64,000 nt of DNA from a virus (taxonomy: Duplodnaviria; Caudoviricetes), in the IMG/VR virus record IMGVR_UViG_3300037419_001469, positions 20,786-84,785 of that record; one strand, 5' to 3'. The notes below the pieces were generated by a model. The model worked only from the letters and a program-made list of their open reading frames with translations. It was not told the DNA's origin and did no database searches. Below are positions 28 to 60,643 of this stretch, in pieces. How positions within the stretch are numbered: the stretch's first letter is position 1; each line of letters opens with the position of its first letter. The position numbers and the translations under genes are program-made.

Positions 28-1416
28 TTATTCTCCATAGAGGGCCTTGCGTATGTCCTTGTAATTTCGCACGACGCGATTAACTTGCTCATCTTTTCTC
101 AAGAGCGATTCTTGCCTGTTAACTTGTATTGTACCACTTGCAATGGCAAGTCGTACACGAACTTTACGCTTTTGGCCATTGCGATAAACCCTGCCGACTG
201 CCTGCTCGAACTGGATCGGTGTCAGTGGCATTTCCATAAACAGCACGTCTGCGCACATGTCTTGCAGGTTCAAGCCGTAGCCAGCACTCTGCACCTGTGC
301 AACCAGCACTTGGCATGCCGGGTCTTCCATGAACTTAACGATATTTCTTTCCTGCTCCTTGGCGGATATACCGCCGTAGACCGCGACCGCGCCACACTTA
401 GTGAGATACGCGTGCATCGCCGCCGAGGTCATCCGGTAATTCGTGAACACGATCAGCTTCTGGCCTGCCAGCTCATCGAGGACCTGGTCGACCAGCTCGA
501 AGCCGGCCGAGGTCGCATTGGGGTTGCCGGAGAAATAGGCGTGGTTCAGGATGATCTGCTGCATGCAGTGCCACAGCCGGGTCTCCTGGGTCGCATCGAT
601 CTTGCCGCCGTCCTCCAGCTCCAGCATCTGCTCCTCGGCCAGGCGCCGATACAGCGCCATGTGGTCGTCGGCCAGGTCGTAGAACAGCGGCTGATACGCG
701 ATCTCCGGCAGCTCGGCCAGCACGTCTTCCTTCAGCAGCCGGCGCGAGTGGACGCGCAGGTTCTGTTCGAGCAAGTCGAGGTTCGCGTACTCGACGGGTT
801 TCCCGAAAAAATCCTCCTTCGTGATGTGGATGTTTCTCCACATATTGAAATTGCGGTAAATCTGTGGCGCGATCAGCTTGATGTAGGCATACGCATCCTC
901 GATCTTGGCCAGCGGCGTGCCGGTCAGCAGCATCAGGTGGCCATCCATCGAGTAGTCGCGCACCGTCTTGTAGTTCTGGCTGGCGTAGTTCTTGATCGAG
1001 GTCGCCTCGTCGACGATCAGGACCGTCCGGTTCGGGTTGGTCTCGGTCAGGATACGGGCCTGGTCGCGCTTGAACATCTCGATCGTCATCAGCGTGAACA
1101 TCGCCTCGAAGTTCAGCTTCCTGCGCTGTGCCGGCTCGCCGCGGTAGATCGTCGCGGTCACGCCGGGTATCGACATCAGCCACTTGTACCAGCCGCGCAA
1201 GAGGATCGGCGGCATGGTAACAATCACGCGGTCGGCCTCGCCCATGATGATCTTGAACAGGGCGCTGACCGTGGACGTGGCGGTCTTGCCCACGCCCACG
1301 GCCAGGTAGTGGCCGGACTTCGGATACAGCGCAAGCTCGTTGACGACGGATTTCTGGTAGCCGTACAGCTCGAACGGCAACTTGAACCGGGAGGCAACGA
1401 TGTCGCACGGTGTCAT
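28..1416 (-). CDS. SNF2-family (SF2) helicase
   Basis: Walker A-like VGVGKT, DEAT box (LIVDEATSIKN), LLTGTP, GYGLNLQ and QAVGRVYRNGQ motifs. Confidence 0.9.
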   Translation of the reverse strand: MTPCDIVASRFKLPFELYGYQKSVVNELALYPKSGHYLAVGVGKTATSTVSALFKIIMGEADRVIVTMPPILLRGWYKWLMSIPGVTATIYRGEPAQRRKLNFEAMFTLMTIEMFKRDQARILTETNPNRTVLIVDEATSIKNYASQNYKTVRDYSMDGHLMLLTGTPLAKIEDAYAYIKLIAPQIYRNFNMWRNIHITKEDFFGKPVEYANLDLLEQNLRVHSRRLLKEDVLAELPEIAYQPLFYDLADDHMALYRRLAEEQMLELEDGGKIDATQETRLWHCMQQIILNHAYFSGNPNATSAGFELVDQVLDELAGQKLIVFTNYRMTSAAMHAYLTKCGAVAVYGGISAKEQERNIVKFMEDPACQVLVAQVQSAGYGLNLQDMCADVLFMEMPLTPIQFEQAVGRVYRNGQKRKVRVRLAIASGTIQVNRQESLLRKDEQVNRVVRNYKDIRKALYGE

Positions 1417-1419
1417 GGC

Positions 1420-1905
1420 TTACTCCTTCTGCTGTTTTCCATGACGCAATATGCCATCCAGGACCGAGCGGGTGTCGGCCCAGGACCTGGCTTCGATGTC
1501 GGCGGCGATGTCGGCCGCGCGCATCGTGACCGTCTCTATCCAGCGCGGGTTGAACGCGACCATCGGCAGGTAGGACAACCGCTTGGCGTCCATGCGGGAC
1601 ACGCGTTCGACGAACGTCGTTGGATCCTCCTGCAGCCAGCCACGCATCTCGGGAAACAATCGCCTGCAGTTGTCGCCCTTCATCGTAGCCAGCGCATGGC
1701 CGAGCGCGCCGAACGGCATGCGCTGCGTGACCAGCAGCGCATTGGCGCCGGGCGCCAGGTACTGATCGACCATCGGGTAGCTGATGTAGACGAGGTTCCA
1801 CAGCGGCATGTCGCCGCGGCAGCTCGGGCCGTAGCCTATGCTGCCCTTGCCGTAATCCTCCGGTGGCCGCGGCGACCAGCAGAGTTCTCCACGTACATGA
1901 ATCAT
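1420..1905 (-). CDS. hypothetical protein (161 aa)
   Basis: GGAG RBS before ATG at 1905; the longer ORF-track start runs through a terminator and another gene. Confidence 0.7.
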   Translation of the reverse strand: MIHVRGELCWSPRPPEDYGKGSIGYGPSCRGDMPLWNLVYISYPMVDQYLAPGANALLVTQRMPFGALGHALATMKGDNCRRLFPEMRGWLQEDPTTFVERVSRMDAKRLSYLPMVAFNPRWIETVTMRAADIAADIEARSWADTRSVLDGILRHGKQQKE

Positions 1906-1917
1906 GGTGCTGACTCC

Positions 1918-1948
1918 AAAAAAGAAGGCCCACACTAAGTGTGGGCCT
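1918..1948 (-). terminator. intrinsic terminator (leftward)
   Basis: AGGCCCACAC-TAA-GTGTGGGCCT hairpin followed on the minus strand by TCTTTTTT; contains a family-B core. Confidence 0.65.
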
Positions 1949-1964: not shown

Positions 1965-2444
1965 TTAATCGAACACGGGTTCGACGAAATCCACGCACTT
2001 CAGGAACTTGTGCTGCGGATAGAACTTGCCATCGCTGCCAGTCTGGTCCCGGGCTGACTTCAAAGCCATCGCCGGAAACTGGCCCACGGCATATACCTCC
2101 AGGCCCAGGCCGTGGTACTTCTCGGCAGTGCGATTCAGTTGGTCCTGGTTCATCACCAGGCGCGACATCAGCGCGCTCACCACGAGCTCCATATCCTTGT
2201 CGGCATCGAAGCCGGCAAGGTGGTGGCCGCCGAGGCTGAACACGTTGACATCGCACAGCGCATCGCGCAGCTTTTTCGGGTCGCGCTGCTCGATGGCCTC
2301 CAGCGCTTCCTCGACCTCCTCGGGAATGCACTGGACCTGCTTCCTGAGGCGGTCCCAATCGATGGCCTCCGGATTTCCCTGCGGGTTGCCGAAGGCGGTG
2401 TTCATGGCGGCGACGAGGCCGAACATTGAGGGTTGCGTCATCAC
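1965..2444 (-). CDS. MazG-like/PRA-PH-like nucleotide pyrophosphohydrolase
   Basis: Helical EEVEEALEA...DALCDVNVF acidic metal-binding pattern of all-alpha NTP-PPases. Confidence 0.7.
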   Translation of the reverse strand: MMTQPSMFGLVAAMNTAFGNPQGNPEAIDWDRLRKQVQCIPEEVEEALEAIEQRDPKKLRDALCDVNVFSLGGHHLAGFDADKDMELVVSALMSRLVMNQDQLNRTAEKYHGLGLEVYAVGQFPAMALKSARDQTGSDGKFYPQHKFLKCVDFVEPVFD

Positions 2445-2658: not shown

Positions 2659-3108
2659 TTAATCTCCTGGCGGCTTCTGATCCACGATCACGCGGAACAG
2701 GCCGGTAATGGGGTTCACACCGAGTGTGAGGACCACGCCAGCGAATTCGACCTCCATCTTTTCCGGAGCGATGTGCGGTCTTGAAATCGCAACTTCCCCC
2801 GGCTCCCTGACGGCAGCCTTCTTGGCGCGGTTACCTAGTTGAAAAGGCGGCGCGCTTGGGTTCCATCGGTAGGTCGCCTCACGCCCCATGCCGTTCTTGA
2901 TGATGGCGTTATGGCGCTCCAGCACTTTTAAAATGTCGCGCACCTGCCAGTTGGTCCGCTCTGTCCTGGAGATGTCATCCTTCTGCCTCAGAGCGGCAAG
3001 AGATAGCTCCTCTCTGCGTAAGTGCTCCTCGATGAATTTGTACATCAAGGCCAGGTTCGCCATCGGCGGTTGGGCTACGTCTTTGGTCTCGTCGGTAAGG
3101 TCTAGCAT
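2659..3108 (-). CDS. hypothetical protein, possible winged-helix DNA-binding domain
   Basis: GAGG RBS before ATG 3108; WQVRDILKVLERHNAIIKNGMGREATYRW resembles a wHTH recognition helix plus wing. Confidence 0.55.
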   Translation of the reverse strand: MLDLTDETKDVAQPPMANLALMYKFIEEHLRREELSLAALRQKDDISRTERTNWQVRDILKVLERHNAIIKNGMGREATYRWNPSAPPFQLGNRAKKAAVREPGEVAISRPHIAPEKMEVEFAGVVLTLGVNPITGLFRVIVDQKPPGD

Positions 3109-3276: not shown

Positions 3277-3459
3277 TTAAAGCCAGTCGTCGTGCGAGGT
3301 CCGTGGAGGCACGTCATCCGACAACTGGTCCTCGAATCGGCGGTTACGCGGAGGCGCCTTCGCCTGCTCCTCCGCGCGCCGCTTCAGCGCCTCATATTCC
3401 GCATGCAGGCGCTGAAACTTCCGTCGATTCAGGGCGTTGGATAGCCACTGGAAAATCAT
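3277..3459 (-). CDS. small hypothetical protein
   Basis: ATGA overlap with the stop of the ParB-like gene. Confidence 0.6.
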   Translation of the reverse strand: MIFQWLSNALNRRKFQRLHAEYEALKRRAEEQAKAPPRNRRFEDQLSDDVPPRTSHDDWL

Positions 3460-4547
3460 GGGGCGGCCTTGCCGTCTTCGCCCTTCGGCTTGAACGGCCA
3501 GTTGCCATTGGCAACCTCTCCCTGTTCCGGCGCCGGCCCGTCGCCGTCGTCGTCCTCGTCCTCGTCGGTGCCGAGCATCGCCTGCAGTTCCAGCAAGCGC
3601 TTCAGCACGGTGCCAGGCACCTTGACCGAATACTTGCGGGTGTCGCTGATCGACTCGACCTTGTACTCCAGGTCCGGCAGGAAATGCACCATGTCCTTGG
3701 CGATGTCGACGACTTTCTTCGGGCTGACCTTCTTCTTCGGTGCGGCTTCGCGCTGCGCGGCGGCGACGGCGGCCGGATCACCATCGGTGCCAGCAGCCGG
3801 ATTGGCTGCCATCTGCTTGGCGATCGACGTCGTCACCTTCGGCTTGCCGGTTTCAGCCAGGCGCGTAACGTAGTCACGCAACACATCTACCGCCCCTTCG
3901 GCGCCGTGCTTTTTCACGGCGTCCAGCGCGACATCCACGCTGATCTTGTCGTCGCGGATCAGGTCCTTGATCGGATGCGCCAGGTTCGAGATCGCTTCGA
4001 GCTTGTCGATGTACGACGCCGACCAGGACAGCTTCTTGGCGATGTGGGTCTTCGGCAGATTGAGGGTGTCGATGGCGCGGCGCACGACGACGGACAGTTC
4101 CAGCACGGTCAGCTTCTCGCCCGCGTTCGAGGTCACCGTCATCATCAGGCAATCCTCGTCGGAGCCCTTGAACGGCACGCACATCAGGAAGCCGACGCCC
4201 TCCTGCCCTTCGGCCTTCAGCTCGGCATCGGCCTGCAAGGCTGCCGTGTAGCGGCACTCGCCATTGACGATGGAGACCTTCTCCTTCGACTCCAGGCGAA
4301 CCTCGATGGCCGGCACATACTGGCCGCTCTTGTAGGCTTCCTTGATCGCGGCGATCTTCTCGACCGTCTCCGGTTTCGATAGGTCGCGCGGATTGAAACC
4401 CTCGCGCTTGACGATGCGGTGCAGCGGCACCTTCATCAGCTCGCCGCGGCCGACGTCGGCATTGCCGCGCTCGAAATCGCGGAACGATCCGGAGCCCGGC
4501 ACGCGGCTGGTGTTGGCGGTATCTTTCAATTGCTTCGTCTTCGACAT
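3456..4547 (-). CDS. ParB/Spo0J-family protein (ParB N-terminal domain + HTH)
   Basis: GFNPRDL and IVNGECRYTAA (ParB GxxRxxA-like) motifs, then HTH-like KTHIAKKLSWSASYIDKL; GGAG RBS favours ATG 4547. Confidence 0.85.
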   Translation of the reverse strand: MSKTKQLKDTANTSRVPGSGSFRDFERGNADVGRGELMKVPLHRIVKREGFNPRDLSKPETVEKIAAIKEAYKSGQYVPAIEVRLESKEKVSIVNGECRYTAALQADAELKAEGQEGVGFLMCVPFKGSDEDCLMMTVTSNAGEKLTVLELSVVVRRAIDTLNLPKTHIAKKLSWSASYIDKLEAISNLAHPIKDLIRDDKISVDVALDAVKKHGAEGAVDVLRDYVTRLAETGKPKVTTSIAKQMAANPAAGTDGDPAAVAAAQREAAPKKKVSPKKVVDIAKDMVHFLPDLEYKVESISDTRKYSVKVPGTVLKRLLELQAMLGTDEDEDDDGDGPAPEQGEVANGNWPFKPKGEDGKAAP

Positions 4548-4596
4548 GATCTTCTCCATTTACAGTAAAGGAATGCCCATCTCGTCAATGGGCCTA

Positions 4597-5040: not shown

Positions 5041-5398
5041 ACACGATCTCCCCGAAGCACGCGACCTGCACGATGACGTCAGCCGCGTCGGCGTCGATGT
5101 AGCAGCCGATGTTGTCCTGGTCACCAATCGAGTCGCGGATCCATTGCCGGATCTGGTCGTTGACCTGGACCTCGCCGTTGGCCAGCTGGCGCACGGCGGC
5201 GCGAATCTGGTCATAGTCGACGGAGACTGCCTTATCTCTGTCTGGCATGATCTTCCAGCCAACGACCTTGTTGTCATCATCCAGCAGATGATGTGCCCCG
5301 GCGCACCAGTAATTGATACCGCCTTCGAAAGCGGTGTCCATGACATCAACCACATACCGATCAGTGATCGTGGTTGACGGTGTGATCAAGGTGTCCAT
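5033..5398 (-). CDS. hypothetical phage protein
   Basis: GAGGAG upstream of ATG 5398; C-terminal DADAADVIVQVACFGEIVYG motif that I recall from phage hypotheticals. Confidence 0.7.
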   Translation of the reverse strand: MDTLITPSTTITDRYVVDVMDTAFEGGINYWCAGAHHLLDDDNKVVGWKIMPDRDKAVSVDYDQIRAAVRQLANGEVQVNDQIRQWIRDSIGDQDNIGCYIDADAADVIVQVACFGEIVYG

Positions 5399-5605
5399 CT
5401 TTTCTCTCCTCGGAGAATTCGACATAGAAGCCGTCCCGTTCAGCACGCACTGTCCCATGCGCCTCGGATGACCGGAACGGATGCTGGTAAAACAGCACAT
5501 AGGCCATCGAGTTCGCACAGAACAAGGCACGAATGCGAGATCGATATTCGATGTACTTGTGGGCCGAGCCATCGCAGCGGCCGAAAGAGACGGTGTACAT
5601 AATTG

Positions 5606-6760
5606 CTATCCAATATAGGTTTTGCGCGGCGGGTCTTCCCCGTACAGGTACTCGCGCAGCTCGTTGACGAAGCCAACAGGATCGTTACGTGCGTATCGGA
5701 CCATTTCCTCCCTGGTCATGAAGCCGTCCGGGTCATCGAGATCGATGTATCCGCCATAGCCGAGATCGAACATGCTGCGGCTGAACTGCCGCGCCTCGGC
5801 CGGGTCCCTCTTAGTGGGAAGCGATTCCCAATCAAGAGAGATGCAGGCATCGCGCAGCGCCATCAGGTGACCGACATCGAGCATTTCGCTGCCGGTGTGC
5901 TCCTTCTGGTAGCCGACCGAGACGTTCGTGCATTCAGGGATGCACTCGATGTATTCCTTCGTGTCGGTATAGACGCCGCTATCGTCCGGGCTGTAAAAGA
6001 AATTGAAGTTGAGCGTATTCAGGGCGTCGGCCAGGGCCAGCGCGAATTCATCCGAGCAGCAAGGCTCTCCGCCCTGGTGCGAGATGATGGAATCGGTCGC
6101 CTTGCGGTCGAACGCGATGGCCCGATTAAACTGCCGCAGGAAGTCGGGCTCGTATTGGGCCATCCAGGACGCGCCGATGCCCCCACACTCCTCGCCGCGG
6201 GTGATGACATAAGTGCCTGGCACGCCTGCGTCGATCATCTCCAGCAGCAGCCACACGCCGGCCCCGTCATCCGCGCCCAGGGGCTCGCCGTCTTCCTTGA
6301 AGATGTGCCTCAGGATCGGGTCGTAGGACAGCACCTGCGGCCCTTCCTTGCGGTGGACGGTGTCGACGTGGGCCGAGAACAGCGTTTTCGAATTCTCTCC
6401 CACGGTGATCACATAAGCGGCGATCTGCCGGTCCCCGTAGATGGCCGGGTTGTAGGGTTTGATATACCTCTCGCACCATGCCCGCTCGGCATCGGAATCG
6501 TGCGGACGCTTCACGCCGAGCATGGCAAACAGCCGCGCGTCCAGGCCCTCCGGCAGAGACTTGACCTGCGCCTTCGGCGGTGGCAGCGGTTCCGGCTCGG
6601 CCTTCTTGAACCAGGCCGTGGGCAGCCCCGTGTGCAGTGGGTTCGGCGCCTTGCTGATCTTGGTGGTCTTGACCTCGATGTCGGGCTTGGAGGTCTTGGA
6701 TGTCTTGGAGGACTTCGGGGCGCTCGTGTTGAGCACGCCCTTCTTTTCGGCGGTTTTCAT
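5606..6760 (-). CDS. M28/M20-family Zn-dependent peptidase-like hydrolase
   Basis: Metal ligands in order: SAHVDT, LGADDGAG, RGEE, FDR, GYQKEHT; ATGA-coupled to the upstream gene. Confidence 0.85.
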   Translation of the reverse strand: MKTAEKKGVLNTSAPKSSKTSKTSKPDIEVKTTKISKAPNPLHTGLPTAWFKKAEPEPLPPPKAQVKSLPEGLDARLFAMLGVKRPHDSDAERAWCERYIKPYNPAIYGDRQIAAYVITVGENSKTLFSAHVDTVHRKEGPQVLSYDPILRHIFKEDGEPLGADDGAGVWLLLEMIDAGVPGTYVITRGEECGGIGASWMAQYEPDFLRQFNRAIAFDRKATDSIISHQGGEPCCSDEFALALADALNTLNFNFFYSPDDSGVYTDTKEYIECIPECTNVSVGYQKEHTGSEMLDVGHLMALRDACISLDWESLPTKRDPAEARQFSRSMFDLGYGGYIDLDDPDGFMTREEMVRYARNDPVGFVNELREYLYGEDPPRKTYIG

Positions 6761-8571: not shown

Positions 8572-8664
8572 TTTGCTACTCCTTCGAGTGAAATTAAGCC
8601 CACAGTGGGCGGCTAGAAACGGGCCTCAATGGCGAGGCCCTGGGAATCACACTTAGTGGGGATC

Positions 8665-12637: not shown

Positions 12638-12663
12638 GGTCATCTCCATTTACGGTAAATGGT

Positions 12664-13339: not shown

Positions 13340-13465
13340 GCACGCCCTCCAGATCGAAAGGTGAGTCCCACTCAGTGGGAGTGCCGGACAACCCGACATG
13401 GCAGACGCCTCGGATGCGAAGCATCTGTGATGTCGGCGCTCAAAGGAGCGCCGGATAGTTGCATT

Positions 13466-14746: not shown

Positions 14747-14776
14747 GTGGGTCTCCATTTACGGTAAATGGCTTGG

Positions 14777-16919: not shown

Positions 16920-17156
16920 TTCAGCCTCCGATCAGACCGCGAATCCAGTCCAGCACCAGTGTCGGTGCCGAGACGAACACGCAGGCGGCAAGCGTGATCA
17001 GATAGAACACGCCCCGGTTCATGGCTTGCCTCCGACCTGCTCGATGCCGAGGATGATCCCACTGAGTCGGAACATGAAATCGGCATAGCTATTGGCCGCG
17101 GCGAACGTGTCGAACACACGGCCGCCGCAGGTGTAGCGGATGGTGGTTTCCATGTC

Positions 17157-18987: not shown

Positions 18988-19023
18988 GTGGGTCTCCATT
19001 TACAGTAAATGGGTGGATAGGGA

Positions 19024-20350: not shown

Positions 20351-20403
20351 CAGTTGGAGAGGTGGGCTCCCACTCAGTGTGGGAGGGTGAGGTCAGACTG
20401 AGT

Positions 20404-21974: not shown

Positions 21975-22031
21975 GAAATCTCCATTTACAGTAAAGGACT
22001 AGGCGGATAAGGCTTGGCATTCCGGCTTGGC

Positions 22032-23303: not shown

Positions 23304-23316
23304 GTCAGCCTCCCAT

Positions 23317-27323: not shown

Positions 27324-27671
27324 ATGTTGACTGATTCAACGATGAAAGCCGAGGGCTACCTGATCGAGACGATGGGCGGAGGCAGAGACCTGAGATTCAA
27401 CGCGCCTCTGAATGACCCAACGATCCTCGCGGTGACGCCGCTGTACAAGCGCGTGCCGCGCCGCGGCTTTTCCGATGCCCGGATACTCGAAATCGCTGGC
27501 GCGCAGGCCGCGCCGGCGCCGTTCCAGGCTTACATCCTGCGCGCGATGCGCAACATGATGCACGAGCTGCAGAGGTCGGAGACGGATGAGAGGCAATACC
27601 CGCCCGCCGTGCTGCCCGACCTGTCTCCGCCGAGCGTCCCACTCAGTGCGACCCAGGACGCCACCGAATGA
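27324..27671 (+). CDS. hypothetical protein
   Basis: AAGGA RBS; overlaps the next start. Confidence 0.6.
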   Translation: MLTDSTMKAEGYLIETMGGGRDLRFNAPLNDPTILAVTPLYKRVPRRGFSDARILEIAGAQAAPAPFQAYILRAMRNMMHELQRSETDERQYPPAVLPDLSPPSVPLSATQDATE

Positions 27672-29210: not shown

Positions 29211-30947
29211 ATGACGGAGGCCACACTTAGTGGGACCGTAGAGGTCATCCACCGCAACCCGATGCTCAATGACCCGGTGTTCCAGCGGCATGTGGCACGC
29301 CTGCGCAGCTCGCTGTCGGCGCATTCACGCGACACGATCTGTCAATTCATTACCGAAAACACATTCCTGCGCAGCGCGCCGTTTTCTTTCAAGGACCACG
29401 AATACCAGCAATTCATCCTGGAAGATAAATCCGCGGAAAAGGTCATCATCAAAAGCGCGCAAATGGGCATTTCCGAAATGTCCGCGCGCATGGCCCTGGC
29501 AATGGGTAATTTGATCGACGGCTTTTCCACGATTTACACGCTGCCTTCGGCACTTGCTGCAGCGAATTTCATGAAAACCCGGATCGATCCGGTGATCGAT
29601 TCGTCGCCGTATTTGTCGGAGGCCGTTTCCAAGGAAATCGACAATACGCTGATCAAGAAATTCGGGGAATCCTATTTGTACCTGAAAGGGGCGCAAGTCG
29701 ATTCCCAGGCGATTTCGGTGCCGGCCGATATGCTCATTGGCGACGAGGTCGATAATTCGAACCAGGACGTATTGACGCTATTCGAATCCCGCTTGATCCA
29801 TTCGCCCTATGCGTACAAGGTTTATTTGTCCACGCCCTCGGTGCCGGGATATGGTATCGACGCGCGCTATAAACAATCGCGCCGCCATGTCCACATGTGC
29901 AAGTGTGTGCATTGCAATCACTGGTTTGAGCCTGATTATTTTCGGGACGTTAAAATTCCGAAGTTCAAAGGCGAGATTGGCGACATCGTCAAGGCCACTT
30001 TCAGCGACCCCGTCTTCCTCTGGCAGCAAGCCTATGTCGCCTGCCCGGGCTGCGGCAAACCTGCGGATTTGTCGGAACCGAACCGCACCTGGGTCTGCGA
30101 AAACCCGAATGATGCTTATGTCGCAGCCGGATTCCGCGTGTCGCCATTTTCCTGCCCGAATATCATTAAAGCGTCGGCGCTCGTAAAGGCGTCGGTCGAC
30201 TATGCGCGCGTGCAGGATTTCCATAACCAGCGCCTGGGCATGCCGCTCGAAGACAAGGAATCGACGCTGACGGCCGAGGAATTGCGCAATTGCCTGGTCT
30301 CCGATTTCGGCGCGACCGGGGCGTTTTCGTATGTCATGGGCCTGGATATGGGCAATGTCTGCCATTGCACGATCCTCGCCTGTTTGCCCGACAATCAATA
30401 CGTCGTGGTTCACCGCGAGAGAATCCCGCTATTCCAGGTATTCGAGCGCCGGCAGGAATTGTCGCGACAATGGCGAATCCGCATTTGCGTCGTCGACCAC
30501 GGCCCGTATACCGAAACGGTCTATCGCATGCAGCAATACGACCGCAGCGTATTTGCCGGCGTGTATGTGCGCACCAAGGGCATCGACCTGTATCGAATCA
30601 AAGACCAGGAAGAAGACAAGGAAAAGGGCAAGCAGGAATTGCGGCAGGCGAATATCGCGCGCGACAAGGTGTTCGACCTGATCATGCTGATGCTGCGCGC
30701 CGGGCAATTCAAGGTCGTCGCTGGCTCGGAGGATGACCTTTGGATCCAACAGATGACCTCGCAAAAACGGGTGCGCGAGTTCGTCAACGACGAGCTGGTA
30801 TTCGTGTGGGCGAAGACCGATGGCAATGACCATTACCACCACAGCATGCTGTATGCCTACATCGCCAGCCAGATCCTCGGCGTGGCCGGTAACACCCTTG
30901 CGCTGCCGTCGCTGATCAGCAAATTCAAGGTTACGGCAGGGCAATAG
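29211..30947 (+). CDS. terL: terminase large subunit, lambda GpA-like
   Basis: Walker A KSAQMGISE, Walker B LIGDEVD, coupling motif STP, CxxC Zn motifs, RNase H-type GLDMG and DHYHH; alternative start 29262. Confidence 0.9.
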   Translation: MTEATLSGTVEVIHRNPMLNDPVFQRHVARLRSSLSAHSRDTICQFITENTFLRSAPFSFKDHEYQQFILEDKSAEKVIIKSAQMGISEMSARMALAMGNLIDGFSTIYTLPSALAAANFMKTRIDPVIDSSPYLSEAVSKEIDNTLIKKFGESYLYLKGAQVDSQAISVPADMLIGDEVDNSNQDVLTLFESRLIHSPYAYKVYLSTPSVPGYGIDARYKQSRRHVHMCKCVHCNHWFEPDYFRDVKIPKFKGEIGDIVKATFSDPVFLWQQAYVACPGCGKPADLSEPNRTWVCENPNDAYVAAGFRVSPFSCPNIIKASALVKASVDYARVQDFHNQRLGMPLEDKESTLTAEELRNCLVSDFGATGAFSYVMGLDMGNVCHCTILACLPDNQYVVVHRERIPLFQVFERRQELSRQWRIRICVVDHGPYTETVYRMQQYDRSVFAGVYVRTKGIDLYRIKDQEEDKEKGKQELRQANIARDKVFDLIMLMLRAGQFKVVAGSEDDLWIQQMTSQKRVREFVNDELVFVWAKTDGNDHYHHSMLYAYIASQILGVAGNTLALPSLISKFKVTAGQ

Positions 30948-30986: not shown

Positions 30987-32504
30987 ATGATCAAGAGCTT
31001 GCTGTCCTCCTGGGGCATCTCCGCCGCCACCGCCATCCCGACTGACCCTGCGCCGAAGGTGCGCAGCAAGCGTCAGGCGCTGCCCTCTTACCTGCTGACG
31101 GCCAAGCCGCCGCAGACGCCGATGCCGGTGACGGACCGGCAGCTGGCGAACACGGACACCGTGCCGACCTTTGCCGGCGCCGGCAGCACGAGCAAGACGC
31201 TGCGGGCGATGGGCTACATGTCGCCCGAGTTCTCCTCGGCCATCTTCTCGTACCTGCGCGTGGGCATCCCGAACGGCTATGTCGCTGTCGCGAAAAATCC
31301 GGACGGCAGTTTTAACCCGGAGGCGACCCAGGCGCTGCAGCAGATCATCGCGCGCTTCGATGTGCTGCCGGATTACACGCAGGGGTTCAATGGCGTGGCC
31401 TCCTTGCGCAGCCTGTCGGAATCGCTGGCCAAGGACTTGCTGTACGAGGGCGCGATGTGCGGAGAGCTCGTGCTGGACAAGAGCTACCTGCCCTCGCGCA
31501 TCCAGCCGATCTCCGTGTACAACATGCGGCAGCAGCCAGACAAGGATGGCTACCTGGTGCCGGTGCAGTACATCGGCGGCTCGCACACGGTGCTCGATGC
31601 GCCGACGATTTTCTATGTCGCGCTGGACCAGGCGCTGATCGATGCGTACCCGTCCTCGCCAATGGAATCCGCGATCAAGGCGGTCCAGTTCTCGGAGAAT
31701 TTCGTCAACGACGTGCAGCGCGTGATGAAGCGCGCCGTCCACCCGCGGCTGACGGTGACCCTGGACGAGGACAAGTTCCGCAAGTCCGTGCCGCAGGACA
31801 TCGTCAACGACCCGGTGAAGCTGATCGCGTACCAGAACGAGGTCGTCGCCAATATCCAGGCAATGATCAACGGCCTGCAGCCGGAGGATGCGCTGGTGTA
31901 TTTCGACATGCTCGGCATCCAGCTGATGAACAACGGCAACCAGTCGCTGTCGCACGAATACACGTTCATCCAGGACATGGCCAACGCGAAGATGGCCTCT
32001 GGCGCGAAAACCATGCCGGCCGTGCTCGGCATGGGCAGCGGCAGCCAGAACGTCGCTTCCACCGAGACGATGCTGTTCGCGAAAGCGGTCAGCGGCGCGA
32101 TCACGAAGAAGCTCGACGAATTCTATTCCCGGATTTTCACGCTGGCCGTGCGCCTGCTCGGCTACGACGTGGTGGCCGAGTTCACCTATGACCCGATCGA
32201 CCTGCGCCCGGAGTCGGAGCTGGAGTCGTTCCGCTCGGTCAAGCAGGCCCGCATCCTCGAGCTGCTGTCGCTCGGCTTGCTCACCGACGAGGAAGCGAGC
32301 CTGCAGCTGACCGGGAGATTACCGCCGAAAGGCTACGTCCCACTAAGTGGGACCCAATTCAAGAGCGCGGGGCCGGCAGAGGCGACCGATCCCACCTCCA
32401 ACGCCGGCAGCGCCGCCAACAAGGCGATAAAAGCCGACAGCGCGGGCGTAAAAGGTCAGAACAAGAAGGCGAATCCGCAACAGGCGGCGCCGACCAAGCA
32501 TTGA
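30987..32504 (+). CDS. portal protein
   Basis: 505 aa between terL and the protease, helical; synteny. Confidence 0.8.
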   Translation: MIKSLLSSWGISAATAIPTDPAPKVRSKRQALPSYLLTAKPPQTPMPVTDRQLANTDTVPTFAGAGSTSKTLRAMGYMSPEFSSAIFSYLRVGIPNGYVAVAKNPDGSFNPEATQALQQIIARFDVLPDYTQGFNGVASLRSLSESLAKDLLYEGAMCGELVLDKSYLPSRIQPISVYNMRQQPDKDGYLVPVQYIGGSHTVLDAPTIFYVALDQALIDAYPSSPMESAIKAVQFSENFVNDVQRVMKRAVHPRLTVTLDEDKFRKSVPQDIVNDPVKLIAYQNEVVANIQAMINGLQPEDALVYFDMLGIQLMNNGNQSLSHEYTFIQDMANAKMASGAKTMPAVLGMGSGSQNVASTETMLFAKAVSGAITKKLDEFYSRIFTLAVRLLGYDVVAEFTYDPIDLRPESELESFRSVKQARILELLSLGLLTDEEASLQLTGRLPPKGYVPLSGTQFKSAGPAEATDPTSNAGSAANKAIKADSAGVKGQNKKANPQQAAPTKH

Positions 32505-39884: not shown

Positions 39885-40219
39885 CCTGGGAAATGCAGTG
39901 GGGCAGCTCGGTCAAATCCCTGCTGGAGATCAAGAAGGCCAGCGGCAAGACGCCCCTGGCCTTGCTGAACCGCCCCCTGCTGCGCGCTGACTGCCTGGAC
40001 TGCAAGAAGGCGTTCCACTTGCTGTCTGGCCAGCGGCAATCCGACCAGACCGGGCCGCAACCGATCGCGATCTCGGAAATCGAGTCGTACCTGCGCTTGA
40101 AGCGCATCGACGACGAGGACGAGATCGACACCTACCTCGAAGCCATCACCGCCCTCGATGCGCTGTGGCTGGAGAACGTGCGCGAGAAGATGGCGCAGGC
40201 GATCAAAAGTCCCACTTAG
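39863..40219 (+). CDS. tail chaperone gpGT extension via -1 frameshift
   Basis: In-frame heptamer G-GGA-AAC at 39863-39869; the -1 frame is open into ORF 39893-40219. Confidence 0.8.
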   Translation, partial: GKLRSVLTWEMQWGSSVKSLLEIKKASGKTPLALLNRPLLRADCLDCKKAFHLLSGQRQSDQTGPQPIAISEIESYLRLKRIDDEDEIDTYLEAITALDALWLENVREKMAQAIKSPT

Positions 40220-40309
40220 TGGGGATTCCCACTGAGTGGGATTTTGTTTCCTACCGGGAAGAATTGCCTGGTGATAATATCGACCTATCCCCGTTGACCA
40301 TCCGCCATC

Positions 40310-43300: not shown

Positions 43301-46300
43301 GCGGCCGGCTGGATTGGCCTGGCGATCGCTGCACTGACGACCCTATACGAGCTGTGGACGGGCGGTGCGGATAAAGCCGAGCTGGCCGAGCAGAAGGTCC
43401 AGAACTCGATCAACACGACCTTGACCTTCCTGGACCGCGAAATCGATCGGCTGAAGCAGAGGAATGAACTGCTGCAGACGAGCCTGCGCGATGAGTTCGG
43501 CATTGGCGGCGACGCACAGCAGAAGACGATCCAGTCCGAGCAGGAGCGGCAGCAGCAGCATCTGAAGGACTTGCAAGGCCAGAAGGCGTCGCTGCAGTCC
43601 GAGATTGACAAGCTGTCCAGCAAGACCGTGGATGCGAAGGTCGGGCAGACCGTCGACATCCGCGACATCAACGCGCTGCGCGAGAAACGCGCCGAGATGC
43701 AGAGCCTGAACCGGACCATCGAGGATACCCGCGCCAAACTCGCGGGCGTCTCCGACAAGCTGCAGGAAATTTCCGCGCAGGATTCCGAAGGCCGCAACCT
43801 GAACCAGCAGCTCAAGCTGATGCGCGACCTGGTCGCGCTGGAGCACCAGATGGGCGGCGGCGGCGTGCAGTACGAGCGCAACGGTAATGCCGCCACGCAC
43901 GGCATGCTGCCGCAGGTAGAAGCCCTGAAGCAGCGCACGCGCGAGGCGACCGGCGCGGCGGACCTGCAGCAGATCCAGCAGGAATACGACAATGCCTACC
44001 GCCATGTGCAGGGCGTGCTGCAGAACTTCGAGAAGCTGGACAAGAAGGCAATCAGCGACGAGATGCAGGCGCGCATCAAGGAGATCGAGGGCGCGCGCCA
44101 GCGCCTGGACGACAGCCTGAAAAAGCAGGAGGAGCAGGCCAAGGCCAGGAACAAGGCCGGGGAGATGGGTGACGCCGAGCTGCTGGCGAAGCAGCGCGAG
44201 CTGTCCGTGACGAAAGCCACCGGACATGCGCAGGCCGCCGCCGACATGTACAGCGTCTATTCCGAATACCCGGACCATAAGAAGGACATGCAGGCGCAGG
44301 TCGAGGCGCTGAAGCTGGCGAAGCAGCAAGGTGCCGAGGCTTCAGAAAAATATGACGCCGAAATGGCGGCAATGACCCGGAAGTTCGATGACGAGACCCT
44401 GGCGCACAAGGCGGAAACGCTGCGCATGCAGGGCCACCTGGTCGACGCCTACCTGCTGGAGATGCAGGCGAAGTATGGCAAGACGATCGACAAGATCGAG
44501 CGGGACTTGAACAACCCGGAACTGAAGCTGACCAGCCAGCAGCGCAAGTCCCTGGAAGACCGCCGCGCCAGCATCCAGGAAGAAATTGCCCACGGCGTGC
44601 TGAAGAACTCGTTTACCGAGACCGTCGACAGCTTCAGCAGCAAGAAGACGGACATGCAGAACAGCATCGACGACCTGGCCCCGAAAGCGGCCAAGGGCGA
44701 TGCGTTCTCGCTGCTGGCGGTCGCGCAGGAAGCGGAAAACATCCGCAGGCAATCCGTGCCGGCGCTGCAGGCGCTGGCGGAACAGGCCCGGGCCACCGCG
44801 AAAGAGCTTGGCGATCCGAAGCTGCTGGCGCAGGCGAACCAGATGAGCCGGGAGCTGGCCAAGGAAGCCGACAAGACGATCGAGCTGTGGCAGCAGGCCG
44901 GCAAGGCGATTGAAAAATCGCTGACGGAAGCCTTCGGCGCGGGCGGCAAGGCCGCTGGCGGCATGATCTCGGCGTATATCTCTTACACCAAGGAAAAGGA
45001 AAACATCGACGCCCGGGTGCAGAAGGTCAAGGACGACCCGAACCTGGACGATGCCGAGCGGCAGAAGAAGCTCGACGAGCTGTCGAAGGCCAGCGCGCAG
45101 GCGCAGATCAACAATTACGCGACGATGGTCGGCGCCGCCAAGGGCTTCTTCGATACCAAGAGCAAGGGCTACGCCGTGCTGCAGAAGGCGGAGCAGGCGT
45201 TCCGCCTGTTCGAGATCGGCCTGGCGCTGGAGTCGTACGTCAAGAAGACCTTCTTCGCCACGGCGGAGACGACCGCCGCCGTCGCCGGGGACCAGGCCAA
45301 GGCCGCCTCTGCCGTCGCGGTCACGCCAACCCTGGTTGGCGCAAGCATGGCGCAGGGCCAGGCCGCCGCCGTGGCGGGAGTCGCGAACCAGGCGCAGGGC
45401 GACCCCTACTCCGCCTGGGTGCGCATGGCCTTGATGGCTGCCACGATGGCCGCGCTCGGCTTTGCCGTGATGGGCAGCGGCAGCAGCGACGCGCCCGCGC
45501 GCGACCCGGCCAAGGACCTGCAGGACCGCAACGGCACCCAGGCGCAAGGGAGAAGCGGCGATAACACCGCCATCGGCTACTACGATTGGGAGTTACAAAA
45601 ATCCGACTCCATCGACAAGTCGCTGGAGATCGTCAAGAACAACAGCAACATCGCGCTGCGTTACACGCAGCTGATGACGGCGCACCTGCAGTCGATCAAG
45701 GACAACATCGGCAACCTGGCTGTCCTGGTGTCGAACGCGGCTGGCGTGCGCGGCACGATGGCTGACACTGCCGGCCTGGGCCTCGGGTCGGTCAATGGCG
45801 GCATGGGCTTTTCGATCACCCGCACGAGCCTGCAGGATTCCGGCATCGTCTTTGGCCAGCAGACCCTTGCCGATGCGATCGCGCAGGGCATGAAGGCCAA
45901 TAGCTACATGCAGGTGCAGACCGACACCTCGTCCTGGTGGGGGCTGTCGCACGACATCGAGAACGTCACGAAGTACGGCAGCCTGTCGGATGATTTGCTG
46001 CGCTCGTTCACGTCCACACTCAGTGAGGTGGCGCAGACCGCGCAGGTCGCGGGGCAGTCCCTCGGCCGGTTCGGCGGCAACCTGCAGGATGCGCTGCAAA
46101 ACATCGACCTGGCCAGCCTGGGCCTGACGCAGGCGTCGTTCAAGGGCATGAGCCAGAAGGAGGTTCAGGACGCGATCGACGCGATGATGAGCCAGGCGGG
46201 AGACAGGATCGCGCATGACCTGGTGCCGGGACTGGACGCGTTCCAGCGCGCCGGGGAATCCTACCTGACGACGCTGGTGCGCGTGTCGACCGGCCTGGAG

Positions 46301-49780: not shown

Positions 49781-49807
49781 TCCCACTAAGTGTGAAAGGG
49801 GCAGGAC

Positions 49808-53435: not shown

Positions 53436-53779
53436 TCGTCAAGCTCTTTTTCTACGACACGTCCGGCCGCATCACGATGGTCGGCGCCTGCCCCGAATCG
53501 ATGGTGCCGCTGCAGGAAGGCGACCATTACCAGGGCGAGATGGACCCGTCGACCGAATACATCGTCGACGGCAAGCCCGCGCCGCGTCCGACCTGCCCGG
53601 CTGCGCTGTCCGGATTCACACTCAGTGGGATGCCGGTGCCGTCGCAGCTGTTCATCAATGATGTCGCGCATGACGTCACCGAGGCCAGCGTCGATCTCGA
53701 GTTCCCGCAGCCGGGGAAGTACGACTTGCGTGTCGTCGCCTGGCCCTATCTCGACGGCCGGTTCACGGTCACGGTGTAG
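53432..53779 (+). CDS. minor tail protein
   Basis: ATGA coupling; YIVDGKPAPRP motif. Confidence 0.6.
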   Translation: MIVKLFFYDTSGRITMVGACPESMVPLQEGDHYQGEMDPSTEYIVDGKPAPRPTCPAALSGFTLSGMPVPSQLFINDVAHDVTEASVDLEFPQPGKYDLRVVAWPYLDGRFTVTV

Positions 53780-54229: not shown

Positions 54230-54663
54230 TGCAGGTGGCTCTGTACAAAGGAAAGGGTCAACGCCTGTTCGACCGGCTGATCTGCTGGTGGACACGCAGC
54301 ACCTACTCGCATTGCGAGGCGGTCTTCGACTACAACGCCGAGACCGGCCAATATTTCTGTGCCAGCGCCTCGGTGCTCGACGGCGGCGTGCGCTTCAGGT
54401 GGATGCCGCTCGATCCCACTAAGTGGGACCTGGTCGAACTGACCGCCGACAAGCATGCCGCCTTCGAATGGTATGCAAACCATGTCGGTCGGAAGTACGA
54501 CTACCAGGGCATCGTCGGCTGCGTGATCCGCGCCATTCCCGCCAACCCGGCGCGCTGGTTCTGCTCGTCGGCGCTGGCCGCCGCGCTCGGCTGGCCGGAG
54601 CCGTGGCGGTGCCTGCCGGCCAACATCAAGAACGCCGCGGATTGGGAGAAGGCGCATGGCTGA
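54226..54663 (+). CDS. permuted papain-like (YiiX/YebB-type NlpC/P60) protein
   Basis: YSHCE precedes GRKYDY and WFCS (His-before-Cys order). Confidence 0.7.
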   Translation: MMQVALYKGKGQRLFDRLICWWTRSTYSHCEAVFDYNAETGQYFCASASVLDGGVRFRWMPLDPTKWDLVELTADKHAAFEWYANHVGRKYDYQGIVGCVIRAIPANPARWFCSSALAAALGWPEPWRCLPANIKNAADWEKAHG

Positions 54664-57386: not shown

Positions 57387-57540
57387 GTCCCACTCAGTGG
57401 GATTCCCCATTTTGCAACTATCAGACGCGCCCTGCCCGGGCGGCCACCAGGCGGAGGCGTTGCGCACGCCTCCGCTCATAGTTTCCAAGCCTCAACCTCA
57501 TGCTATGATCTCCGGTAATTCCCACAGGCAATAACAGACC

Positions 57541-58108: not shown

Positions 58109-58600
58109 ATGAGCATCGTCGTCCAACTTTCAAACCTGATCACCCGTATCGGCACCGAGTTCAAATCGGTACGGTCCACGACCGGCGCGCTGACGGACTT
58201 GTCCACCACGACCAAGTCAAGCCTGGTCGGCGCGATCAACGAGGTCAAGGCGGCGCTGGCTTCCGCTTCGCAAATCAACGATGCCGCCGCCAGCACGACC
58301 ACGGCCTACTCCTCGCAAAAGGTCACGGACCTGCTGGCGACGCTGAAGTCCGACATCCTCGGCGGCGCCTCGGCGGCGTATGACACGCTGCAGGAGCTGG
58401 CCACGCTGATCCAGTCGGACGAGTCCGGCATCAGTTCGCTGACCACGGCAGTCGGCAACCGGGTGCGGTTCGATGCGGCGCAGACCCTGACCTCGGGTCA
58501 GCAGGCGCAGGCGATCGCGAACATCGGCGCGATTGCCGCGGCCGATGTGGGCGACGTGACCACGGACTTCGTCGCGCAGTTCAATACCGCCATCGCGTAA
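58109..58600 (+). CDS. fibre shoulder/anchor protein
   Basis: LSTTTKSSLVGAINEV, GASAAYDTLQEL fibre motifs. Confidence 0.7.
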   Translation: MSIVVQLSNLITRIGTEFKSVRSTTGALTDLSTTTKSSLVGAINEVKAALASASQINDAAASTTTAYSSQKVTDLLATLKSDILGGASAAYDTLQELATLIQSDESGISSLTTAVGNRVRFDAAQTLTSGQQAQAIANIGAIAAADVGDVTTDFVAQFNTAIA

Positions 58601-58609
58601 GGAGCCAGC

Positions 58610-60484
58610 ATGAGCCTGGTTAGCCAGATCACGGCGGTCGTTCAGGCCATCGGTGCTCAGATCAAGGCGATCAATTCCGCCAAGGGTGCGGCCAACGGTT
58701 TAGCCACGCTTGGCAGTGACGGCAAGGTGCCGTCTGCGCAACTGCCAACGCTTGCCGCTACGCCGGGCGGCGCGACGACGCAAGTGCAGTTCAACGACGC
58801 CGGCAGCTTGGGCGGCGACGCCGATTTCACCTGGGACAAAACGAACAACGTCCTCACCATTGGCACGGGCGCAGGGACTGGCACGCTCAAGGCCGCCGAT
58901 GCTGCAGCGGCCACGGGCGCAGGCGCAAACCTTGCCATTACTGCCGGTGCAGGCGGTACAAGTTCTGGCGCAGGCGGCTCGATTGCGATCACTGCCGGCA
59001 CTCCCACCAGCGGCAATGGCGGTTCAATCACGATCAAGTCGGGTGCGGGCAGCGGCCTCTCCCCGGCCGGTGACATCACGATCATGCCGGGCCAGAACAA
59101 GGGTGGCGGGCTAGGCACACTCACCTTGAAAGGTTCCTCCGAGGGAGGAGGTCAAGGACCTGTCAAGGTGCTCGGCGGCGATGCCGCATCCGGCACGGCG
59201 ACTGGCGGCGCAGTCACTGTCCAGGGCGGCAATTCTGTCACCAATGGCGGCTCTGGCGGCGCAGTCACGGTGGCGGGCGGCGATGCGATCGCACCGGGCG
59301 GCGTCGGCGGCAACGCGACTCTGCGGGGCGGCAACAGTTTCGGCGTCTCGCAAATCGGCGGCAGCGTATCGATCTCTGGAGGTGCAGCTGATCCAGGCAC
59401 CACGGCCGGTTGGAATGGCAAGAACGGTGGCACGGTTACGATCACTGGCGGCACCGGAGGCAGCGCGACGAACTCGGGCGTCGCTGTCGGCGTGGGCGGT
59501 GCGGTCACAGTCCAGGGCGGCGCAGCCGGCACAGCCAGCAATAGCGCGAACGGCAGCTCGGGCGGCGCAGTGCTCATCAAAGGTGGCACGGCAACCGGCA
59601 ACGCAACGGGTGGCACGGCAACCCTTGCGGGCGGAGACGGCTCCAGTGGTTCGACTGCTGGTGCCTTGGGCGGCAACACCGTCATTTCCAGCGGCAGCCC
59701 CGGCTACGCTGCGGCGCAAGCTGGAAGCATCACCATCCAACCGGCCGATTCGGGCACGAATGCTTCCGGCGCTGGCGTCACGATCAAGGGCGGCACATCT
59801 CAGAGCGGCGCAGTCGGCGGTGACGTCACCATTTCCGGTGGCGCAGGCACCACATCAGGCACCGGCAGTGCCGGCAACGTCATCATTCAGGGCGGCGCAG
59901 CCTCGTCCACCAACGGCAACAATGGCGGCGGCGTCACGATCAAGACCCTCACGCCGGGGAACGCGGGCGGCGTCGCCGGCAATATCGCCATCACTTCCGG
60001 GGATGGCGGCACCGCCAGCTTTGGTAATGGCCCTGCGGCTTCTACCGTCACGGTCACCGCAGGTAAGGGTGGCACCGGGACTTCAGGCTGGAACGGCGCG
60101 GCGGGTGGTATCGCGCAGATGCTTGCTGGCGCGGGTGGCAACGGTAACGGCTCGGGCGCACCGGGCGCAGGTGGCGACGCCAAGGTCACGGCCGGCGCGG
60201 CAGGCACGGGCGGCACCGGCAACGCCAACGGTGGCAACGTCGTCCTTACACCAGGCGCTGGCGCCGGCACCGGAGCACGCGGCAACGTTGTGCTGAACGG
60301 CACGGGCGCGGCGCTGGCGACCACAGCCACGGGCGGGTTCACCTGCATCCCGACCTGTGCCGGAACTCCGACCGGTGTGCCGGCAAACGTCTCGGCCGGC
60401 ACGGTGCCGATGGTGTTCGACACGACGAACAACAAACTGTGGGTCTATACGGGCGGCGCGTGGAAATCGTCACTGCTTGCTTGA
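58610..60484 (+). CDS. glycine-rich tail fibre
   Basis: GLATLGSDGKVPSAQLP then many GGxVxIxGG repeats. Confidence 0.8.
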   Translation: MSLVSQITAVVQAIGAQIKAINSAKGAANGLATLGSDGKVPSAQLPTLAATPGGATTQVQFNDAGSLGGDADFTWDKTNNVLTIGTGAGTGTLKAADAAAATGAGANLAITAGAGGTSSGAGGSIAITAGTPTSGNGGSITIKSGAGSGLSPAGDITIMPGQNKGGGLGTLTLKGSSEGGGQGPVKVLGGDAASGTATGGAVTVQGGNSVTNGGSGGAVTVAGGDAIAPGGVGGNATLRGGNSFGVSQIGGSVSISGGAADPGTTAGWNGKNGGTVTITGGTGGSATNSGVAVGVGGAVTVQGGAAGTASNSANGSSGGAVLIKGGTATGNATGGTATLAGGDGSSGSTAGALGGNTVISSGSPGYAAAQAGSITIQPADSGTNASGAGVTIKGGTSQSGAVGGDVTISGGAGTTSGTGSAGNVIIQGGAASSTNGNNGGGVTIKTLTPGNAGGVAGNIAITSGDGGTASFGNGPAASTVTVTAGKGGTGTSGWNGAAGGIAQMLAGAGGNGNGSGAPGAGGDAKVTAGAAGTGGTGNANGGNVVLTPGAGAGTGARGNVVLNGTGAALATTATGGFTCIPTCAGTPTGVPANVSAGTVPMVFDTTNNKLWVYTGGAWKSSLLA

Positions 60485-60643
60485 TCCCACTTAGTGGGAC
60501 CCGGAAATGACACAGGCCCGGTTGACCGGGCCTGCGGGATACCTGATGACGAGGCAAGTACCCGAAGTAATGACTAGGAGAAGTGTCGATTACTAGGCCG
60601 CAAGTGTAGCAATTGTGGCCCGGTTCGTCAATTTGACACTGCT

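Follow-up and report, generated by a model that had tools for sequence, protein, structure and literature searches.

A 15-bp palindrome, here called family B, is repeated along the genome of a phage known from IMG/VR record IMGVR_UViG_3300037419_001469 (84,785 bp; hereafter G000). The window analysed is the stretch of 64,000 nucleotides covering positions 20,786-84,785 of this record, and coordinates are those of the window unless the genome is named. The copies form an even array which is conserved, with turnover, in related phages and which occurs together with a ParB-like gene. We hold it very probable that this is a selected array of protein-binding sites on duplex DNA, while the identity of the binder, its action as a dimer and the purpose of the array are what we infer from comparisons.

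The window contains 18 copies of the palindrome core, CACTNAGTG, where dinucleotide shuffles average 0.57 and never exceed 4; the whole genome contains 23, where about one is expected. A first-pass annotation of this DNA, made from the sequence alone, had reported 18 exact cores and four near copies and had guessed that less than one core would occur by chance; all are found in their places and the guess was sound, and only its G+C content of about 64% has to be corrected, to 62%. The near copies (2715, 5805, 11516 and 17057) have one core mismatch each and good flanks. The consensus, TC(C/A)CAC-TNA-GTG(G/T)GA, has the flanks that the annotation had described and recurs about once every 3.7 kb. 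Position 2 of the half-site is C in 46 of 46 half-sites, though the search left this position free, and at position 3 there are 26 C, 15 A, 3 G and 2 T. A loose motif scan allowing two mismatches and a de novo scan for degenerate palindromes were too noisy and were not used.

As had been noticed, about half of the sites are intergenic (9 of the 18 in the window, with a tenth overlapping a stop codon) and several stand hard against stop codons: those at 49781, 57388 and 60485 begin 0-1 nt past the stop, and that at 8647 begins 3 nt past it. Concerning the copies inside genes, there are 14 genome-wide, compared with 0.51 +/- 0.66 (maximum 3) in 500 synonymous-codon shuffles within each gene, a control that the annotation had proposed and that places the count well above background. 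These copies are read in two frames, as T/P-L-S and as H/P-T-K/E-W/C, and use codons that are indeed uncommon in this genome, such as ACA (4% of Thr), ACT (5%), CTA (2% of Leu) and AGT (4% of Ser); taken together, ACA, ACT, CTA, CTT, AGT and CCA make up 2-9% of their synonymous families. Selection on the palindrome acts at the DNA level.

Because the half-sites vary independently and most copies fold poorly as RNA, we read family B as a duplex-DNA site recognised by a two-fold symmetric protein, presumably a dimer, and not as an RNA hairpin. The pairs found at position 3 (CC 9, AC 7, AA 2, others 5) are as independent half-sites predict, with no excess of complementary pairs, so that the earlier argument for a dimer on double-stranded DNA stands. 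The arms are perfectly paired at 9 of the 23 sites and mismatched at 14, compensatory covariation is absent, and the RNA folding energy of the 15-mers averages -4.7 kcal/mol, compared with -16 to -24 kcal/mol for the evident intrinsic terminators of the same genome. Hairpins in RNA or single-stranded DNA, serving as terminators, 3' stabilisers or processing sites, would fit the intergenic half of the sites, many of them directly past stop codons; they would also fit the site at 1930, whose stem extends to 10 bp and is followed by a T-run, and the site at 40227, which is followed by TTTTGTTT. However, only 1930, 40227 and, weakly, 40210 pass a terminator scan among the 18 window sites, and in relatives the arms are kept while the centre varies, the arms being often unable to pair (A opposite C). 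Moreover, canonical terminators adjoin the sites at 35846 (terminator at about 35,815-35,840, after the capsid gene) and 8647 (near 8,600), and a GC-rich hairpin without a T-run lies 3' of the site at 60485; therefore the sites themselves are not terminators. The terminator reading was rejected on the missing covariation, the weak folding and these separate terminators alongside, and hairpin function in general is very unlikely, even if the site at 1930 may do double duty as a terminator.

The sites and near copies of the window are the following:

392..406, site CCACACTTAGTGAGA, inside the SNF2 helicase gene (28-1416, minus strand)
1930..1944, site CCACACTAAGTGTGG, intergenic, a 10-bp stem and then a T-run on the minus strand, also intrinsic-terminator-like
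2715..2729, near copy TCACACCGAGTGTGA, with CGA in the middle
5805..5819, near copy TCCCTCTTAGTGGGA, upstream, by about 200 nt, of the conserved gene for 75 amino acids (aa) that heads the ParB-like operon
8647..8661, site TCACACTTAGTGGGG, intergenic, 3 nt past a stop codon
11516..11530, near copy TCCCACTAAGTATGA
13366..13380, site TCCCACTCAGTGGGA, intergenic
17057..17071, near copy TCCCACTGAGTCGGA
20368..20382, site TCCCACTCAGTGTGG, intergenic
27637..27651, site TCCCACTCAGTGCGA, 20 nt ahead of the stop of gene 27324-27671
29221..29235, site CCACACTTAGTGGGA, in the large terminase gene, 10 nt from its start; the relative G001 has a degenerate copy there
32338..32352, site TCCCACTAAGTGGGA, in the 505-aa gene adjoining the terminase gene, read V-P-L-S-G in rare codons
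35846..35860, site TCACACTCAGTGGGA, with the canonical terminator 3' of the major capsid gene on one side and the following start codon on the other
40210..40224, site TCCCACTTAGTGGGG, sharing bases with the stop codon of gene 39893-40219
40227..40241, site TCCCACTGAGTGGGA, intergenic, before the tape-measure gene, followed by TTTTGTTT; the matching region of G001 also has a site
46014..46028, site CCACACTCAGTGAGG, within the tape-measure gene (2655 aa)
49781..49795, site TCCCACTAAGTGTGA, beginning directly past a stop codon
50051..50065, site TCCCACTAAGTGGGG, 34 nt from the start of gene 50017-52032
53616..53630, site TCACACTCAGTGGGA, within gene 53432-53779
54414..54428, site TCCCACTAAGTGGGA, within gene 54226-54663
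57388..57402, site TCCCACTCAGTGGGA, 1 nt past a stop codon
60485..60499, site TCCCACTTAGTGGGA, directly 3' of the last gene of the right arm

The G000 record is linear, lacks end repeats and is 98% complete according to CheckV. Genes were mapped by a heuristic of our own (open reading frames, ORFs, combined with codon bias), which gives a coding share of 89%. The left arm, on the minus strand, has the replication genes (ATP-dependent ligase, family A DNA polymerase, 5'-3' exonuclease and a 955-aa primase-helicase), a thymidylate synthase homologue, SbcC/SbcD-like proteins, an RNase T-like exonuclease, the SNF2 helicase, a MazG-like protein and the ParB-like gene. The right arm, on the plus strand, encodes the large terminase, the major capsid protein, the 2655-aa tape-measure protein and tail proteins. 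The 505-aa gene adjoining the terminase gene, previously annotated as the portal, has no family match.

Spacing and conservation of the array

With the genome taken as circular, the largest gap between neighbouring sites (all 23) is 7,269 bp, against a mean of 13.8 kb under random placement (P=0.001), and the coefficient of variation (CV) of the spacing is 0.58 (P=0.004). These statistics assume a circular or permuted genome, with a wrap-around gap of 6.0 kb that may be about 1.7 kb longer, which leaves the result unchanged. The largest gap (20,382-27,637) is the control region between the arms, where a second palindrome, family A, is densest. Such an even layout suggests a coverage function, and it would suit a protein that spreads or bridges over short range as well as it would suit a clamp.

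To compare related phages, five viral records were collected by capsid-based searches and a sixth was fetched later, and sites were counted with at most one mismatch to each consensus:

G000, ParB-like gene present, 24 sites TCMCAC-N3-GTGKGA, shuffled control 0.45
G001 (86.5 kb, closed), ParB-like gene present (36% identical), 13 sites CTRCAC-N3-GTGYAG, control about 0.9
G006 (86.8 kb, closed), ParB-like gene present (36% identical), 13 sites CTRCAC-N3-GTGYAG, control about 0.9
G003-G005, ParB-like gene absent, 0-1 sites of either type, control similar to observed

A profile search found 33 homologues of the ParB-like protein. Seven syntenic loci were tested: the six with a full-length gene (L094, L109-L113) are all enriched, with 2-6 CTRCAC-type sites per 13-21 kb against 0.1-0.3 in controls, while L095, where the gene is truncated (227 aa), has zero sites in 20.7 kb. 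G000-like sites are found on short contigs whose proteins are of the G000 type (51-59% identical), namely three CNCAC-TAG/CTA-GTGNG sites in the 5.5 kb of L096 and one site in L099.

Spacing is also even in G001 (CV P=0.003) and G006 (CV P=0.027), two genomes which are not independent, as some of their sites are common by descent. They are 73% identical across the alignable half of their sequences, and at six cleanly aligned orthologous sites the arms are identical in 67 of 72 positions (93%) and the centre in 12 of 18, in surrounding DNA that is 66-82% identical, a pattern that suggests purifying selection on the site arms. Farther apart, G000 and G001 have most of their sites at different positions, a sign of turnover. 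Three positions are common to both: ahead of the tape-measure gene, at the terminase gene start, where the G001 copy is degenerate, and in the primase-helicase gene. At the last of these the residues FTLSA are written ACA-CTN-AGT in G000, G001 and L097 (the G006 contig), while L095, which lacks the array, writes the same residues as ACG-CTG-TCT. Of the conservation of intragenic copies, on which the annotation had called for a check, the primase-helicase site is an example. Site number and evenness maintained while positions drift suggest that the array serves coverage rather than specific operators.

The ParB-like protein as candidate binder

The gene that accompanies the array encodes the following protein:

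3456..4559, minus strand, ParB/KorB/Noc-like protein of 367 aa, candidate binder, with an N-terminal ParB/Srx-type domain, a central helix-turn-helix (HTH) and a C-terminal region of low confidence

Its ORF ends at 4559, not at 4547 as first annotated. We propose, with somewhat more confidence than doubt, that this protein binds family B; it is the best candidate because of its fold, its co-occurrence with the sites, the parallel change of recognition helix and motif arms, and sites upstream of its own operon. Concerning the fold, the protein matches PHROG 1033 'ParB-like partition protein' (phrog_1033, E 3e-39), and its AlphaFold (AF2) model has a predicted local distance difference test score of 74.5, above 88 for most of residues 70-250. 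The top Foldseek matches of the model are ParB, Noc and KorB, with E down to 1.6e-9, and span the N-terminal domain and the HTH. The template modelling (TM) score is 0.67 with KorB (8qa9_B) and 0.70 with the KorB DNA-binding domain on its operator (1r71; root-mean-square deviation 3.1, 116 columns). The family profile finds the same proteins in the PDB, with Spo0J (1vz0) at 5.7e-10, Noc at 1e-9 and the KorB DNA-binding domain (1r71) at 3.1e-7. Both the ParB/Srx-type N-terminal fold and the ParB/KorB-type central HTH are thus recognised, and the ParB fold normally targets compact palindromes of 13-16 bp.

The predicted recognition helix reads (W/F)S(A/P)SY(I/V)DKL in five genomes of the TCMCAC type and KS(I/V)GW(I/V)DRLIV, with the first two positions slightly variable, in eight of the CTRCAC type. 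A site lies 34-38 nt upstream of the start codon of the ParB-like gene in L094, L109 and L111 and 76 nt upstream in L096; in L110, L112, G001 and G006 it lies 250-380 nt upstream, ahead of the first (75-aa) gene of the operon.

Several observations weigh against this assignment. The Pfam HTH_ParB score, 20.8 bits, is below the cut-off of 22.6. In G000 the palindrome immediately ahead of the ParB-like gene belongs to family A and not to family B, and the B-like copy nearest to the operon has one mismatch and lies about 200 nt upstream. The correlation between protein and motif comes from essentially two clades and could be produced by shared ancestry, and the same phyletic pattern is seen in a 259-aa HNH-like protein, in the conserved 75-aa protein and in several small ORFs. 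Finally, the patch that binds cytidine triphosphate (CTP), GERRxRA with box III ENLQR, has lost two of its three arginines: box II reads GECRYTAA (residues 100-107) where GERRYRAA is aligned, the first and third Arg being replaced by Cys and Thr, and in box III SN-EGE aligns to ENLQRE. The canonical CTP clamp chemistry is probably absent, and CTP-driven sliding is doubtful because those two arginines of GERRxRA are missing.

All members of the family share GE-R-TAA, and 13 of the 14 have the Cys, which points to a conserved alternative pocket and not to decay; this Cys occupies what we take to be the position of the sulfiredoxin catalytic Cys. The N-terminal peptide FRDFER is also conserved family-wide. 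In KorB, the GERRxR motif is highly conserved and phosphate-binding, and the R117A change abolishes CTP binding (PMC11790492).

The explanation that we favour is that family-B sites, of general form YYN-CAC-N3-GTG-NRR, would be genome-wide, evenly spaced docking sites on duplex DNA for the ParB/KorB/Noc-like HTH protein that the phage itself encodes, acting as a symmetric dimer. A site at least every 7.3 kb would let this protein mark or cover the whole phage chromosome, and the purpose would most likely be global transcriptional control or chromosome organisation, as for KorB at its operator OB or Noc at its binding sites (NBS); plasmid-style partition is not a likely purpose. The earlier claim was that the protein loads at the sites to organise, segregate or repress the phage chromosome. 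The protein keeps its place as best candidate, while segregation from a centromere finds no support, with neither ParA nor an integrase found, and loading through CTP is doubtful in view of GECRYTAA. As a bolder and rather doubtful extension, a partner-less ParB/KorB-like protein with a conserved-Cys pocket (GECRxTAA) might tile the chromosome of a virulent-type phage from evenly spaced loading sites and form a kind of phage-encoded 'chromatin'. This could set the timing of transcription, organise the DNA during replication or packaging, or mark it as self against host nucleases, and in sister phages the protein may recruit a Spo11/TopoVI-A-like enzyme.

If the phage lived as a plasmid-prophage like N15 or P1, the sites could be dispersed centromeres for partition; these would also involve a ParB-family protein, and the dispersed centromere sites of N15 are known. 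However, six-frame family searches of the 98%-complete G000 genome found no tyrosine integrase and no ParA-type ATPase (PF13614 and PF01656, threshold E<=1, with controls positive in all 14 of 14 cases, one genome each). Neither a repressor nor a protelomerase appeared among the matches of the protein family scans that were run, repressor Pfam families not having been searched genome-wide, and absence of every lysogeny function is not provable. The partition reading was rejected on the missing ParA and integrase, and a centromere is extremely unlikely because ParA and integrase/lysogeny genes were not found; in addition, the genes are of the virulent type and include those of a replisome of its own (Pol A, primase-helicase, ligase, exonucleases), and 23 evenly tiled sites far exceed what a centromere needs. 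G000 looks like a member of an uncultured lineage with virulent siphovirus-like gene content, because it has its own replisome, because no integrase or ParA was found and because the nearest cultured capsids, those of Vibrio phage SHOU24 and of Pseudomonas phages Lana and PMBT3, are about 31% identical. Megablast against phage records found no close cultured relative. A related contig bearing a homologue sits in a 5.8-Mb Rugamonas metagenome-assembled genome (MAG), where the family-B 13-mer has zero copies; the reading as a host repeat was set aside on this count.

Neighbouring genes and other palindromes

The ParB-like operon of G000 is headed by a 75-aa ORF (5367-5603, minus strand) that the gene caller had missed and that carries the pattern FGRxDGSAxKY...HPF(K/R)SS, with no family match. 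Homologues lie near the ParB-like gene in the five relatives checked (L094-L098), and ORFs of similar size are found there in L109-L113. Two genes downstream of the ParB-like gene is a 149-aa protein (2659-3108, minus strand), 57-64% identical in G000-type relatives, which has weak winged-helix (MarR/ArsR-like) look-alikes in a protein atlas and is a possible second DNA-binding protein. In G000-type phages this protein and one of 60 aa take the place that a topoisomerase-like gene has after the ParB-like gene in G001-type phages. The latter gene encodes 292-294 aa and adjoins or overlaps the end of the ParB-like gene (L094:5009-5887, L097:10999-11883, L110:11208-12089); its 292-aa product matches phrog_6247 'DNA topoisomerase' (E 5e-115) and by eye is Spo11/TopoVI-A-like ('mini-A'), having a Tyr in its N-terminal part and the Toprim motif GDHDPSG. 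No homologue of it is encoded by G000.

It is unlikely, though less so than a centromere or hairpins, that another symmetric DNA-binding protein (the 149-aa neighbour, the 75-aa protein or a host factor) binds the sites and that the ParB-like protein only travels with them. The winged-helix look-alikes of the 149-aa protein would suit such a role, as would the presence of the 75-aa gene ahead of the ParB-like gene in every relative, and six exact 15-mers in a contig that has no protein in common with G000 (L006, below) could point to a shared host factor. On the other hand, G001-type genomes have arrays and lack the 149-aa protein, L095 has the 75-aa gene and zero sites, and the 13-mer is missing from the Rugamonas MAG; moreover, a host factor common to all would leave unexplained why the motif arms shift between sub-clades together with the recognition helix of the ParB-like protein. 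The 259-aa HNH/restriction-endonuclease-like protein (21195-21974, minus strand; phrog_8790 and phrog_3377, no Pfam match) could be a minor alternative binder. Among complete relatives it is common only to G001, a phyletic pattern that equals that of the array and the ParB-like gene.

The sites could also be targets of an enzyme that nicks, cuts, passes strands or modifies bases, with the ParB-like protein as its targeting or activating subunit, for which DpdB with DpdA is a parallel. Such an enzyme could be the Spo11/TopoVI-A-like protein whose gene follows the ParB-like gene in G001-type relatives, and G000 itself encodes ligase, SbcCD, a MazG-like protein and a dATP/dGTP diphosphohydrolase domain. 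However, the topoisomerase-like homologue is not in G000, and six-frame family searches with positive controls gave no match there to Tet_JBP, TGT/DpdA, PurZ, N6_N4_Mtase or C5 DNA methylase, on which the modification or nicking reading was set aside. Phage ParB-like proteins are activators of 5mYOX thymine dioxygenases on duplex DNA (PMC13229309), a second parallel that would speak for a targeting role. The ParBs associated with 5mYOX enzymes lack a DNA-binding domain and act on short contexts, while the G000 protein has an HTH, and a modification target need not be over-represented or evenly spaced. On balance we regard an enzyme target as quite improbable, and binding by the ParB-like protein remains the reading that we prefer.

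As to nucleotide metabolism, a protein with a dATP/dGTP diphosphohydrolase N-terminal domain (PF18909, E 9e-25) is encoded outside the window, at genome positions 14665-15225 on the minus strand (L092:14665-15225), and a MazG-like pyrophosphatase is encoded at 1965-2441 (minus strand), alongside the ThyA homologue. Together the three hint at editing of the nucleotide pool, with no identified pathway of base modification.

The second palindrome, family A, is also 15 bp long (CATTTAC-N-GTAAATG) and is restricted to the left arm, with 13 copies at 4560-24703 (for example 4557-4571, 12647-12661 and 18997-19011). Nearly every copy adjoins, on the 5' side, the GGAG ribosome-binding site of a minus-strand gene, and the copies are densest in the 7.3-kb control region, which is free of family-B sites. 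The G000-type relative L096 has a variant, CATTAAC-N-GTTAATG (at 514, with a degenerate copy upstream of its ParB-like gene). By analogy with KorA and its operator OA, family A could be the operator of a second regulator, or it could be a translational operator.

Searched for in IMG/VR, the exact family-B 15-mer gave single chance matches and one unrelated contig, L006 (IMGVR_UViG_3300022200_005881, 4519 bp, 47% G+C). This contig carries six exact copies of TCCCACTNAGTGGGA (743, 1836, 3074, 3490, 4441 and 4486), one or two per intergenic gap, with an extra conserved flank (A/T)(G/C)TCG. By tblastx, L006 and G000 have no protein in common; a link through their HNH proteins was dropped, since both match the same PHROG and the proteins are not alike. 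The copies in L006 may be a coincidence among palindromic phage repeats or may reflect a shared factor.

Comparison with known systems

Literature searches on the motif and on phage ParB site arrays found no description of a phage site array of this kind. ParA-less ParB-like genes are common in phages, mostly without an assigned job, and here one of them is paired with a concrete 15-bp candidate target, never more than 7.3 kb from the next and kept despite rare codons.

By layout only, the array is like the stoperators of cluster A mycobacteriophages (e.g. L5), of which two to three dozen copies are placed genome-wide at gene junctions and near stops. Stoperators are asymmetric and orientation-dependent, and one phage protein, the immunity repressor of a temperate phage, binds them for global control of transcription. 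The dispersed copies of a short site across a phage genome are common to both; the G000 site, however, is palindromic and often intragenic, its candidate binder is ParB-like and no integrase was found. With ParB-parS and SopB-sopC, including the dispersed sites of N15, G000 shares an HTH protein of the ParB family and a palindrome. It differs in that ParA is missing, the sites are not clustered near an origin and are too many, and the genes are of the virulent type.

The Noc protein of Bacillus subtilis is a ParB paralogue that binds about 70 dispersed 14-bp palindromes (NBS), many of them intragenic, and that marks most of the chromosome and does not serve segregation. It is a CTPase with the canonical GERR motif and a membrane-targeting N-terminal helix. 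Like the phage protein it is partner-less, and it (structures 7ol9 and 7nfu) is among the best fold and profile matches; the phage family differs from it by the FRDFER N-terminal peptide and by the loss of two of three arginines, and the replicon is viral and about 50 times smaller.

The comparison with KorB of plasmid RK2, which the first-pass annotation had drawn, is apt. RK2 carries about 12 OB sites. Both systems have a ParB-family N-terminal domain with an HTH, model and profile matching the KorB DNA-binding domain, and both have compact odd-centred palindromes dispersed on their own replicon, some far from promoters (in the phage, 23 copies over both arms). The KorB OB core of this IncP-1 plasmid is TTTAGCGGCTAAA, an odd-centred palindrome of 13 bp (PMC11790492, PMC13584720). 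The KorB system regulates itself, and in the phages sites lie upstream of the ParB-like operon in relatives, with a one-mismatch copy in G000. More speculatively, family A would correspond to OA as a second, promoter-proximal palindrome, and the small neighbouring DNA-binding-like protein to KorA. Unlike RK2, the phage is not a plasmid and has no IncC/ParA partner, it has 23 sites where RK2 has about 12, evenly tiled and often intragenic, and the phosphate-binding GERRxR of KorB reads GECRYT in its protein.

By analogy, global control as by KorB and chromosome marking as by Noc appear to fit this array better than a centromere does. If the proposed binding is true, the phage protein would offer a natural variant of the ParB pocket, with Cys for Arg, in which to ask whether CTP switching is needed for arrays, and the principle of KorB and Noc, that is, genome-wide control and not segregation, would extend to viruses.

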